A DNA stretch of 64,000 nt from an uncultured Muribaculaceae bacterium (lineage in GTDB: Bacteria; Cyanobacteriota; Vampirovibrionia; Gastranaerophilales; Gastranaerophilaceae), in NCBI GenBank assembly GCA_964626145.1, contig CAZVBZ010000004.1, positions 23,235 to 87,234 on the forward strand, in the 5' to 3' direction. The position numbers and the translations under genes were made by a program. Below are positions 4,605-64,000 of this stretch, one piece after another. Positions within the stretch are counted from its first letter, which is position 1. Each line of letters starts with the position of its first letter. The notes beneath the pieces are model-generated. The model saw only the letters and a list, made by a program, of their open reading frames with translations. It searched no databases and had not been told where the DNA came from.

Positions 4605-4633
4605 TTGAAATCCCTATCAAATTTTGATAAAAT
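4605..4633 (+). promoter_or_regulatory. near-consensus sigma70-type promoter (TTGAAA-N17-TAAAAT) of pilin-like copy 1
   Basis: -35 TTGAAA at 4605-4610, 17-nt spacer, -10 TAAAAT at 4628-4633. The same architecture is upstream of copy 2. Confidence 0.55.
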
Positions 4634-4674
4634 GTAATAGTTAAAAGTACAAATGCAATAAAAAAGGATAGAAA

Positions 4675-5572
4675 ATGAAGTACGATAATTTTACTTTTAA
4701 AGACGCAAAAAACGTTTTTAGCTCGCTTTTAATGCCCCCCCCCCCCTACTGCCACAAGGGTTTCCAGGGTTTTAACTAAAAGCAAAAAACATGGTTGGAC
4801 TCTTGCAGAAACGTTAATTACTTTAACAATTATTGGAGTAATAGCTGCAATGACAGTGCCCAATTTAATGAGCAATTTTAGAAAATCGCAAACCGAGACA
4901 GGAATAAGGGTTGCTTATAAAATTTTAAACGATGCACTCAAAATGCCAATTGCTACAGAAGAAGCGCCTGATATGCCTACAATGATAATAGATTCACAAA
5001 CAGCCCCCGATATAACCGACGAATGGGACTCAATAATTAACCACTTTGCAACAAACTATCTCGTTCCATATTTAAAAGTTGCAAAGACATGTAAATCAGG
5101 AATAAGCACTGAAGATTGTGGTATACTGTATCCCAGCAAGCAAATTGATGGAAGCCCAACGCCACCAGATATGATGATGTATAATCCAAAGGACAAATAC
5201 AGAATTCAGCTCACAAATGGTATGCAAATTGGGGTTGGGAAGTACACGCCACAGGAGGGTGGTGACGGTTTTACTTTTTTAGTAGACATTAATGGTAAAA
5301 GCGGTCCAAATAGGCTAGCACACGACCAATTTTATTTTGCAATATCCGCAGCGACATGTAACACTACTAATCAATATTATTGCGACAAACATAATTTCAT
5401 ACAGGGGGGATTGCCTTATAGGAGTAGTACATCTAATAATATGTTTGATACCAGCATAAATCGGTGCATTAATAATATTGAATTCTGGGGTACTAAAGGG
5501 GCAGATTGTGCCGCGGTACTGCAACAAAACGGCTGGAAGATACCGGATAATTATCCGGTGAAAAAGTGGTAA
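4675..5572 (+). CDS. type IV pilin-like protein copy 1 (prepilin-type N-terminal cleavage/methylation domain); leader ORF and pilin body are out of frame by +1 at a poly-C tract
   Basis: RBS aaagga plus ATG at 4675 opens a leader (MKYDNFTFKDAKNVFSSLLMPPPP) that runs into C12 and stops at 4777-4779. The +1 frame continues ...TATRVSRVLTKSKKHG|WTLAETLITLTIIGVIAAMTVPNL..., a classic G|xxxxE prepilin site with a hydrophobic helix. The table ORF 4850..5572 begins inside that helix and so cannot be the true start. C-terminal GADCAAVLQQNGWKIPDNYPVKKW is shared with the paralogs. Confidence 0.75.
4735..4746 (+). repeat. homopolymeric C12 tract directly after ATG 4732
   Basis: Read directly from the sequence; 11 C (or 14) would place ATG 4675/4732 in frame with the prepilin body. 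Confidence 0.9.
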
Positions 5573-33193: not shown

Positions 33194-33207
33194 CTTACTA
33201 AAGATTA

Positions 33208-33242
33208 AAACGCCGGAAACTTAATTGTTTCCGGCGTTTTTT
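33208..33242. terminator. bidirectional rho-independent terminator
   Basis: aaacgccggaaac/gtttccggcgttt 13-bp hairpin plus T run; between convergent rpsT and pilin-like copy 2. Confidence 0.75.
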
Positions 33243-33245
33243 GTA

Positions 33246-34122
33246 TTAGAATTTCTTTACCGGATAGTCGTCTGGTATCTTCCAGCCGTTTTGCTGCAGT
33301 ACCGCGGCACAACCCGCCCCGCTGTTGGTATTATTGCAGGAATTTATACTAGCATCAAAAGCGTTCTCAGAAGTCCTGCAGCGATAAGAAAGTCCTCCTT
33401 GTATAAAATTATGTTTAGAATCGTAATATGGATCGTTCATCCACGAGGGCTTATCTGCTGATATTACAAAATAAAATTGGTCATACGCCAGCCTATTTGG
33501 ACCACTTTTACCATTAATGTCTACTAAAAATGAAAATCCGTCATCAGCTCCATTTGTATACTTACCAACCCCAATTTCCATACCATTTGTGAGTTGAATT
33601 CTGTATTTTTGATAAGGGTTATACATTCCCATATTGGGGATGCGAGTTCCATCAATTGTCTTGCTCGGATAGAGTATTCCGCAGGTAGTATCCTTTATTC
33701 CATATTCACATGTTTTTGCAACTTTTAAATACGGAACAAGATAATTTGTTGCAAAATGGTTAATTATTGAGCCAAAATCGTCGGTTAAATCAGGTGCGGT
33801 GTTTGAAGCTATTATCATTGCAGACATATTAGGCGCTTTGCCTGTTACAACTGGCATCATCAGTGCATCGTTTAAAATTTTATAAGCAACCCTTATTCCT
33901 GTCTCGGTTTGCGATTTTCTAAAATTGCTCATTAAATTGGGCACTGTCATTGCAGCTATTACTCCAATAATTGTTAAAGTAATTAACGTTTCTGCAAGAG
34001 TCCAACCATGTTTTTTGCTTTTAGTTAAAACCCTGGAAACCCTTGTGGCAGTAGGGGGGGTGCATTAAAAGCGAGCTAAAAACGTTTTTTACGTCTTTAA
34101 AAGTAAATTTTTTTGTATGCAT
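33246..34122 (-). CDS. type IV pilin-like protein copy 2; leader and pilin body are out of frame by +1 at a poly-C tract (poly-G on the + strand)
   Basis: On the minus strand: RBS gaggg, ATG at 34122, leader MHTKKFTFKDVKNVFSSLLMHPP, a C7 tract, stop after 34 codons. The +1 frame reads ...TATRVSRVLTKSKKHG|WTLAETLITLTIIGVIAAMTVPNL... About 70% protein identity to copy 1, with identical N- and C-terminal ends. Confidence 0.75.
34054..34060 (-). repeat. homopolymeric G7 (= C7 on the coding strand) tract in the copy 2 leader
   Basis: Read directly from the sequence; 6 or 9 C would restore the frame. Confidence 0.9.
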
Positions 34123-34164
34123 TACTACACCCTCATAAATTTTTCTAACATTCTACATTATTCA

Positions 34165-34193
34165 ATTTTATCAAAAAACGATAAGAATTTCAA
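34165..34193 (-). promoter_or_regulatory. near-consensus sigma70-type promoter (TTGAAA-N17-TAAAAT) of pilin-like copy 2
   Basis: The reverse complement reads cTTGAAAttcttatcgttttttgaTAAAATt, the same architecture as 4605-4633. Confidence 0.55.
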
Positions 34194-34195
34194 GT

Positions 34196-34395
34196 GCAGT
34201 TTTAATTTTTTAGTTTGAGCAGAGATTCTTCGGTCGGAAATCAACTATAGCTTGCATTTTACCACTCAAAGCTTATTCCCTCAGAATGACGCGGAAAATT
34301 TGTGGACATAGGAGAATCCTAGCCCGACGGACTTTAATTCTACAGTGTTCCTGGTGGAAAACCCGCCACTGCGGGCTGAGTGAGATTTGTAAAGT
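34196..34395. other. GC-enriched, hairpin-rich intergenic element of unknown identity
   Basis: Local GC is clearly above the flanking AT-rich DNA and no ORF is present. A CCCGC-cact-GCGGG stem-loop and several other complementary segments occur. Confidence 0.3.
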
Positions 34396-63388: not shown

Positions 63389-64000
63389 CTAGAATTTCTT
63401 TATCGGATAGTCGTCCGGGAATTTCCAACCGTTGGTGATAATAGTATGTGCGCAACTCATTCCTTCGGTATTTGGCGCGCAGCTGTTAGAAGTTTCGTAA
63501 AATCCGTATGGACCGAATTTAGACGGAGTGAGGATATAATGCAAGAATGTAAAAATATCATTGCCTACTATGTTTGGACCTTTAAACCCATTTAAATCAA
63601 CTAAATAATAAACGCGTTGTATTGGGCGGGAGCCAATGTGAACTAGCATTCCATTGTCTAGCATTATGCTGTAGCTCAAAATGTAAAACGGGGCGTCTGA
63701 CAATTTTCTTCCGTTCATAAATTGTGGATTGTAATTATTATAGTCCGTTGATTTTTGTAGAGATTTGTTCTGGTCTTTTGTTTTAACGTATGGGATAAAA
63801 TATTTTTTAATGTAAGTTATGCGGCTGGCATAATCCCACGTACTTGGCTCTCCGTGCTCTGCAATCGCCATTTTGTTTGCGTTTTGTAGAATAGAATAAG
63901 CAACTTGGAGTTGAGAAATTCGCTCTTGCTTTTTCCATTTTTGGGTTAAATTCGGCACAGTCATCGCCGCAATTACTCCAATAATTGTTAAAGTAATCAA
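63389..64000 (-). CDS. type IV pilin-like protein copy 3 (partial; 5' end beyond the window)
   Basis: ...ITLTIIGVIAAMTVPNL... N-terminal helix and a C-terminal CAHTIITNGWKFPDDYPIKKF motif shared with copies 1 and 2; the central region is divergent. Confidence 0.7.
   Translation of the reverse strand: MITLTIIGVIAAMTVPNLTQKWKKQERISQLQVAYSILQNANKMAIAEHGEPSTWDYASRITYIKKYFIPYVKTKDQNKSLQKSTDYNNYNPQFMNGRKLSDAPFYILSYSIMLDNGMLVHIGSRPIQRVYYLVDLNGFKGPNIVGNDIFTFLHYILTPSKFGPYGFYETSNSCAPNTEGMSCAHTIITNGWKFPDDYPIKKF

Follow-up and report, generated by a model that had tools for sequence, protein, structure and literature searches.

Poly-C tracts in the long prepilin leaders of Gastranaerophilales pilin paralogs point to translational phase variation

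We analyzed a 64 000-nt stretch of contig CAZVBZ010000004.1 (assembly GCA_964626145.1, positions 23,235 to 87,234 of the forward strand), hereafter the window, from a Gastranaerophilales gut bacterium. It contains two complete paralogs of a type IV pilin-like gene in inverted orientation, copy 1 on the plus strand and copy 2 on the minus strand. In both of them a poly-C tract inside the leader-coding part leaves the pilin body exactly +1 out of frame with the start codon. An earlier note, made from the sequence of the window alone, had described this arrangement in copy 2 and offered two explanations for it, either phase-variable expression of each pilin variant or a conserved programmed +1 frameshift. 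We consider it probable that each paralog is subject to translational phase variation through slipped-strand mispairing at its leader poly-C. A homopolymer that occupies a fixed place, varies in length from 6 to 15, occurs in all three phases and is surrounded by nearly identical flanks in both in-frame and out-of-frame genes represents a signature of such control. Thus, in-frame fusions, length polymorphism and the three phases favor the former of the two explanations, while the latter did not hold up when homologous loci were examined.

Two pilin genes with a homopolymer in the leader

The layout of copy 2 was read from the minus-strand sequence and the table of open reading frames (ORFs). 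It proceeds from a promoter through a Shine–Dalgarno (SD) sequence, the start codon, the leader and the tract to the pilin frame. The promoter, TTGAAA-N17-TAAAAT with a TG extension (34165..34193), is the top-scoring site of the region with 10 of 12 matches. The SD sequence GAGGG (34134-34130) is located 7 nt before the ATG codon (34122-34120); both had been recognized in the earlier note and are evident from the sequence. The leader frame as assembled (34021..34122), referred to as OFF, encodes 33 amino acids (aa), MHTKKFTFKDVKNVFSSLLMHPPYCHKGFQGFN, and terminates at TAA (34023-34021). Up to the tract it reads MHTKKFTFKDVKNVFSSLLMHPP, and past the tract it continues for 10 further codons (YCHKGFQGFN) before the stop. 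In both copies the tract begins 60 nt after the ATG, inside the ORF. The tract of copy 2 (34054..34062) consists of C (34062), A (34061) and C7 (34060-34054), the latter seen as G7 on the plus strand just as previously noted, and encodes Pro-Pro at the conserved PP(P)(P) column of the leader.

The pilin frame of copy 2, TATRVSRVLTKSKKHG/WTLAETLITLTIIGVIAAM... (here and below a slash marks the cleavage site), is open from 34064 to the stop codon at 33248-33246, and its displacement relative to the leader is indeed exactly +1. It includes the second half of the leader (34005..34052), TATRVSRVLTKSKKHG, up to the prepilin-peptidase Gly (-1). The mature pilin follows (33246..34004, stop codon included), featuring W+1 TLAE, Glu +5, the hydrophobic α1N helix and a DUF6613-type globular part. 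There is no ATG, GTG or TTG codon in this frame before the ATG at 33950, which corresponds to mature residue +19, and independent initiation of the body is therefore impossible. The two frames fuse upon the loss of one C or the gain of two. If one C is removed, a 290-aa prepilin results; as assembled, the leader frames stop after 33 or 34 aa.

Copy 1 (ATG 4675) is an inverted paralog of copy 2 with identical design and the identical +1 phase. Its promoter, again TTGAAA-N17-TAAAAT with a TG extension (4605..4633), occupies the same relative place. The leader frame as assembled (OFF; 4675..4779) is preceded by SD AAGGA (4664-4668) and reads MKYDNFTFKDAKNVFSSLLMPPPPYCHKGFQGFN followed by TAA, and the tract is C12 (4735..4746), for which C11 or C14 would be ON. 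The pilin frame (+1; 4748..5572) comprises the leader remainder, G/WTLAE at 4796, the body and the stop codon. In the alignment the copies have a common promoter, their own SD sequences and the ATG at an equal position. Moreover, the distance from Met to FTFKD is five codons in both copies as well as in P0007 and P0012, two proteins from other assemblies, despite the divergence of codons 2-5. The earlier statement that the tracts differ in length (12 versus 7, with one A interruption) and share the same OFF (+1) phase is accurate, the interruption being located in copy 2 (C-A-C7).

The presence of these tracts is not due to chance. In the whole window (33.4% GC) there are only two G/C runs of at least 7, C12 and C7. 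The C7 pattern has 7 matches against 0.65 expected, a number that no shuffle reached. In addition, CCC is the rarest Pro codon (9.7%), and 30 long ORFs contain 11 Pro-Pro pairs, not one of them spelled CCCCCC.

Sequence divergence between the copies is distributed unevenly. About 250 nt are nearly identical (one single-nucleotide difference plus the tract), and beyond this region identity is 80-88%. The first 64 codons after the tract contain one synonymous difference, which indicates either recent gene conversion or constraint. In the variable part of the bodies (211 codons) omega is 0.24 at dS of 0.87. This divergence has taken place under purifying selection. The window pilins probably are, or recently were, working genes, with their 5' parts undergoing homogenisation. 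The copies also represent inverted repeats 28.6 kb apart (4687-5105 on the plus strand versus 33695-34110 on the minus strand), about 420 nt in length and 92-95% identical, within which 190 nt past the tract are 100% identical. The near-identity suggests ongoing gene conversion, and homologous inversion of the intervening 29 kb would be permitted by such repeats. Protein P0002 of another assembly resembles a mosaic of a copy 2 N-terminal part and a copy 1-like C-terminal part.

A long prepilin leader and its tract in related loci

The pilin body scores 17.9 with the NCBIfam model TIGR02532 (prepilin N-terminal cleavage/methylation), above the cut-off of 16.3, and 18.9 with Pfam N_methyl, under the cut-off of 21.2. 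Around the cleavage site, KKHG/WTLAETLITLTIIGVIAAM, there are Gly -1, a hydrophobic residue at +1, Glu +5 and the hydrophobic helix, as expected of a type IV pilin or pseudopilin with a class III signal peptide (Gly or Ala at -1, a hydrophobic +1 residue, Glu +5 and a helix of ~20 residues). The body belongs to the DUF6613 family of pilin-like proteins, of which Gastranaerophilales (Melainabacteria) genomes have many members. A length of 35-45 aa is far above that of normal class III leaders; the window leader would be 39-40 aa long and falls outside the range of short basic leaders (usually 6-30 aa). Neither a prepilin peptidase nor an assembly ATPase was identified among the window ORFs scanned. 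A T2SSE ATPase adjoins the pilin gene on a related contig, and Gastranaerophilales have been reported to possess pilA-D and pilT (PMC5877343).

To place the leader, we sorted the N-termini of 169 retrieved proteins, 163 of which belong to the pilin family. The window leader turned out to be a form of a widespread long prepilin leader, M.FDSYI.S.TKT..S.PL.C-PP(P)(P)-.KLK.SKGFKRFA/FTLAE. The long form (35-45 aa) is kept in at least 50 of the 163 family proteins and has a run of 2-4 prolines at a fixed column. In P0007 (MQYQNFTFKDAKNVFSSLLIAPPPTATRVSRFLTKNKKHG/WTLAE...) and P0012 (...MNLKNFTFKDAKNVFSSLLIAPPPTATRVSRFLTKDKKHG/FTLAE...), the leader, the prolines and the pilin are continuous in one frame, following the pattern M...NFTFKDAKNVFSSLLIAPPPTATRVSRFLTK.KKHG/(W/F)TLAE, and P0154 (..NRFTIFEGKNTKTLSSNCPPPTAIRLLREF..) is intermediate between the window form and the widespread form of the leader. 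P0019 and P0127 begin with MPPPPT. Since relatives encode leader and pilin in a single frame, the leader is, to judge from these sequences, a genuine coding part of the prepilin, and the functional product is a leader-pilin fusion broken by the tract. The possibility that the copy 2 locus consists of a leader ORF and a separate pilin was rejected on the same grounds. The leader was also used as a query on its own. A word-index search with the leader profile gave no match and an exhaustive search with the OFF-frame leader ORFs retrieved unrelated repeat proteins only; a family of free-standing leader ORFs appears to be absent from the representative protein library. The genome-contig scan with body peptides detected distant pilins only, none with the exact window leader, and neither the metagenome scans (with peptide patterns and an exact 24-mer) nor the viral scan produced a match.

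Tract length and frame could be determined for a number of related loci using DNA from ENA and Logan contigs. Here, ON+1 and ON-1 denote out-of-frame genes by the offset of the tract from an in-frame length. Three loci, in which the leader flanks differ at few positions only, have tracts TGT+C6 (L030, in frame), C14 (L024, in frame) and C15 (L025, ON+1, protein P0157), the latter two originating from the same sample. The closest relative with accessible DNA, L029, has C9-TACAGCCATAAGGCTT (the tract region is also given as C9-TACAGCCATAAGG), the homolog of Cn-TACTGCCACAAGGGTT in the window, and it is in frame, encoding PPP-T-A-I-R-L. N-truncated proteins of the family were predicted to be OFF, and all four that were traced proved to be frameshifts at the leader poly-C: besides P0157, these are P0021 (L026, C9, ON-1), P0014 (L027, C7, ON-1) and P0155 (L028, C12, ON+1). 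Among the other loci, L017 and L018 (both G9) and L011 (G10) are ON-1, L014 (C10 and C11 in tandem) is ON+1 and L007 (G13) is in frame. Overall, the window, the genome scan and the ENA and Logan contigs yielded 14 fusable tract-bearing pilin genes, a partly biased set as some loci were picked as truncated or full-length, with 4 in frame, 5 ON+1 and 5 ON-1. In the unbiased subset one of seven is ON, which is compatible with random phase (p ~0.26).

The tracts are tightly associated with pilin genes. Of the 23 distant pilin loci retrieved by the genome scan (136 kb in total), nine contain G or C runs of 9-13 nt, and each of the 12 runs is located upstream of a pilin gene. In loci whose sequence before the run is available and unmasked, a strong SD is found there, followed by an ATG and then 7-13 codons up to the run. 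In ~235 kb of Gastranaerophilales DNA, 20 of 20 G/C runs of at least 7 are in or upstream of pilin 5' ends, and no homologous leader with a tract lacks an SD or an ATG. The related loci thus show what looks like common tract-based switching of Gastranaerophilales pilins. Two simple rules of phase were considered and rejected. Poly-C is not always ON+1 with poly-G always ON-1, as L026 and L027 are poly-C and ON-1, and paralogs of one genome do not share a phase, as both OFF signs occur in Clostridium sp. CAG:967, in fact a melainabacterium (L011 ON-1, L014 ON+1).

A third pilin paralog of the DUF6613 family is found on the minus strand at the edge of the window (63389..64000), its 5' end being beyond the window end. 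It is nearest to P0007, P0019, P0129 and P0130, of which P0129 and P0130 are N-truncated calls, a hint of OFF alleles.

Several related loci display additional peculiarities. In L014 of CAG:967, C10 and C11 stand in tandem in one pilin leader (MNKALSFAPPPTKKKQKVFPPP...), and a third tract, C10, faces a divergently oriented pilin N-terminus, with the intervening DNA masked by N (tracts at 2359-2368, 2875-2884 and 2909-2919). L007 (2620-3049) has a leader of ~140 aa that stays in frame from SD-ATG-G13 to AAFTLAEVL through repeat-like sequence (TPCHPELVSGS, RHVRGDY); repeat-derived stretches (MLKQVQHD, AELVSAS) occur in the leaders of L005, L013, P0005, P0112 and P0115 as well. A decoy-like partial pilin N-terminus, FTLAEG(A/N)THVA or FTLVEGAVPVA, is present within the leader ~20 residues before the true FTLAEVL in L011 (2950-3030), L021 (2950-3016) and P0115. 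Finally, L010 (2761-3010) and L015 (2746-3010) have a promoter, an SD, an ATG and a leader ORF, MQK..I.RISGGGAT*, containing G11, followed by a terminator-like hairpin (GCCGTGCCAAATGACACGGT and a T-run) and a pilin gene that has a separate SD and ATG. When the leader ORF of L010 is read in one of its alternative frames, it extends through the hairpin. Such a layout could correspond to phase-variable transcription attenuation.

In the window itself, a bidirectional terminator hairpin (33207..33240) is common to copy 2 and the convergent rpsT gene. We found no further frameshifted gene among 57 other long ORFs of the window, which include many A/T runs of 8-9. Overlapping ORF pairs were considered as frameshifted genes and turned out to be distinct genes. 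The release-factor gene could not serve as an internal comparison for +1 frameshifting, as it is prfA and not prfB. An Rfam search of the window revealed a tRNA only. Upstream of the copy 2 promoter (34215-34300, minus strand) there is sequence resembling the repeat elements seen in the L007 and related leaders, CGTCATTCTGAGGGAATAAGC ... CCGACCGAAGAATCTC, and the 12-mer CGTCATTCTGAG near this promoter has a single occurrence in the window.

Slippage and the alternatives to it

According to the mechanism that we propose, each gene would be a monocistronic type IV pilin-like gene with a prepilin leader of ~39 aa containing poly-C. Leader and pilin would be made in one frame, with prepilin peptidase cutting after KKHG. 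Slipped-strand mispairing in replication would alter the poly-C length, presumably in a reversible manner. Copy 2 would produce the full prepilin (ON) at C6 or C9, and the assembled C7 would lead to a stop after 33 aa (OFF). Copy 1 has a tract of its own (C12 OFF, C11 or C14 ON), which would allow each pilin variant to switch independently, probably at a lower rate for the interrupted C7 than for C12. As the tract is in the cleaved leader, the number of prolines would have no effect on the mature subunit, and in-frame length variants (PP, PPP, PPPP) would leave it unchanged. A contingency locus is commonly recognized by a homopolymer or a short repeat able to slip (~7 or more G/C) in the 5' coding region. 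The window genes have tracts of slip-capable length that set the frame and are over-represented. Length polymorphism is seen both among homologous loci (C6, C14, C15) and between the window paralogs (C12 versus C-A-C7).

Several observations weigh against this explanation. A tract such as C-A-C7 is barely long enough to slip efficiently, and copy 2 could therefore be slow-switching or locked OFF. Copy 1, copy 2 and the related P0002 are all OFF, and the phase distribution in the unbiased subset is compatible with low-level recoding too. Also, the assembled lengths of long homopolymers (C12-C15) are possibly off by one.

The out-of-frame state could be permanent if the copies were pseudogenes or fixed-OFF alleles with frameshifts in an old mutational hotspot. 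We regard this as unlikely, even though both window copies are out of frame, the copy 2 tract is short and interrupted (C-A-C7), as happens when phase-variable tracts decay, and the window genes are represented in databases by N-truncated calls only (P0001-P0003). Neither of the two 270-codon bodies contains a second lesion, and omega is low over a considerable dS (given above). The copies have retained an intact, conserved promoter, SD, ATG and leader, and the single synonymous difference in the 64 codons after the tract points to recent gene conversion or constraint. Moreover, homologous C7 and C9 tracts are found in both phases elsewhere. Recoding seems slightly less likely still. Here OFF(+1) would be the expressed form, and the pilin would be obtained when peptidyl-tRNA-Pro slips by +1 on CCC-C, an event that EF-P or m1G37 might modulate, or when RNA polymerase slips on the homopolymer. 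Among sites prone to +1 shifts CCC-C is a classic one, and ribosomes are stalled by runs of Pro. Both window copies require exactly +1 though their tracts differ by 3 nt, the related allele P0002 is likewise N-truncated, and in the unbiased subset six of the seven loci are out of frame. However, a conserved programmed +1 frameshift, as put forward in the earlier note, is at odds with the homologs: some are in frame (L007, L024, L029, L030; P0007, P0012, P0142, P0154, P0163), and others (L011, L017, L018, L026, L027, with poly-C in L026 and L027) require the opposite shift. The requirement is thus not conserved in orthologs, and a slow or stop A-site codon is lacking, the 0-frame codon past the tract being a sense UAC. 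There is no SD-like stimulator upstream of the tract and no mRNA structure around it that is significant in comparison with shuffles (z of -0.06 and +0.91). In the predicted fold of copy 2 mRNA (34054-34134), base pairing occurs between the SD (GAGGGUG) and the tract (CACCCCC), with energy no better than that of shuffles; the pairing is not seen in copy 1 (SD AAGGA). A low-level leak by +1 slippage of tRNA-Pro or by polymerase stuttering may nevertheless occur.

A miscount in sequencing or assembly, with true tracts of C6 and C11 in frame, is very unlikely. Long homopolymers are error-prone and the source is probably a metagenome-assembled genome (MAG), but C7 is short enough for reliable reading, and the error would have to be +1 at both tracts despite their different lengths. 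The 57 other long ORFs are free of frameshifts in spite of their A/T runs, and comparable offsets in both directions recur in independent assemblies. The earlier note had discounted an assembly error as well, from the same phase of the two tracts. The conclusion to which this pointed is right, but the argument is weak on its own: coincidence has a chance of 1/3 to 1/2, and CAG:967 has both signs. The least credible alternative, hardly to be entertained for the window, is that the 33-aa ORF is an independent leader peptide, an attenuation-type regulatory upstream ORF that is not part of the pilin. The distant loci L010 and L015 do have a leader ORF with G11, a terminator-like hairpin and a pilin gene with its own SD and ATG. 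In contrast, the window pilin frames lack a start codon or SD of their own, leader and pilin are not separated by a terminator, and in relatives the leader runs in frame into the pilin.

A broader reading, which we put forward only tentatively and rate as rather unlikely, unites some of these elements. It assumes a lineage-wide two-mode module of pilin control, in which a strong SD, an ATG and a short leader ORF with a G/C homopolymer of 7-15 nt would precede many Gastranaerophilales pilin paralogs. In one mode, as in the window, the leader would be fused translationally to the prepilin. In the other (L010, L015), the frame of the leader ORF would set the passage of ribosomes through the terminator hairpin, resulting in phase-variable attenuation. 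Slippage of tRNA-Pro by +1 may further provide some low expression of poly-C alleles that are OFF(+1), both window copies included. If so, expression would be graded and sensitive to EF-P and tRNA modification rather than strictly binary.

Significance and comparison with known systems

The Melainabacteria (Gastranaerophilales), which inhabit animal and human guts, have not been cultured; they are related to cyanobacteria but do not photosynthesize. To our knowledge, almost nothing is known about their interaction with the surroundings. Hypermutable tracts before several pilin paralogs per genome suggest strong, fluctuating selection on pili, exerted, for example, by phages, host antibody or adhesion niches, and predict mixed pilus types inside one population. 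There are also practical consequences. Gene callers truncate or miss such genes (P0001-P0003, P0014, P0021, P0155 and P0157 are all N-truncated), and pilin inventories of Gastranaerophilales MAGs are therefore systematically wrong. Furthermore, poly-C/G tracts could be used as markers of within-host population dynamics in metagenomic reads. The lineage-wide module and its possible attenuation variant deserve further study. The mechanism itself is a textbook one; what is new, within the searchable literature, is the host lineage and the long conserved tract-bearing prepilin leader. No paper in the searched literature ties Melainabacteria or Gastranaerophilales to phase variation by repeat tracts, and the report of Gastranaerophilales pil genes mentions them without going further (PMC5877343).

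The closest parallels are provided by Neisseria. In pilC1 and pilC2, poly-G of G9-G15 with occasional interruptions resides in the signal-peptide coding region (Jonsson et al. 1991, summarised in PMC5320596). As in pilC, the homopolymer of the window genes consists of G/C and is located where the 5' part of a pilus gene encodes the leader, the frame sets ON or OFF, and there are two paralogs, each with its own tract in a part absent from the mature protein. The pilC tracts of ~9-15 vary by strain and have interruptions, such as GGGC(G)11, comparable to C-A-C7 in the window. Unlike pilC, which codes for a tip adhesin or assembly factor with a Sec signal, the window gene is predicted to code for the pilin subunit itself and has a class III leader of ~40 aa processed by prepilin peptidase. 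The host is also different, a Gastranaerophilales gut bacterium, and in it switching is deduced from sequences. The opa genes of Neisseria have CTTCT repeats in the leader-peptide coding region and comprise 11 complete paralogs (PMC5320596). They share with the window genes complete paralogs with their own promoters, individually switched by a repeat in a cleaved leader, an arrangement that leads to combinatorial surface variation. The opa repeat, however, is pentameric and Opa is an outer-membrane protein, whereas the window has a homopolymer and a pilin.

Other systems are similar in part. In Bordetella pertussis, poly-C controls the fimbrial subunit paralogs fim2 and fim3 independently, but it does so through transcription, as the tract is part of the promoter spacer. 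In the window the tract lies 60 nt inside the ORF, and phase variation of the fim type was rejected, considering the positions of the copy 2 promoter (34193-34165) and tract (34060-34054). The need for +1 on a CCC run is reminiscent of programmed +1 frameshifting (prfB) and of CCC-C slippage by tRNA-Pro, but the window loci lack a 0-frame stop or hungry codon, an SD stimulator and a conserved requirement for the shift. Finally, pilin paralogs with a near-identical 5' part and diverged 3' parts, as well as the mosaic P0002, resemble the outcome of pilE/pilS gene conversion. In contrast to that system, there are no promoterless silent cassettes. We rejected a pilE/pilS-type arrangement because both copies in the window are complete, each with the same promoter, an SD, an ATG and a leader.

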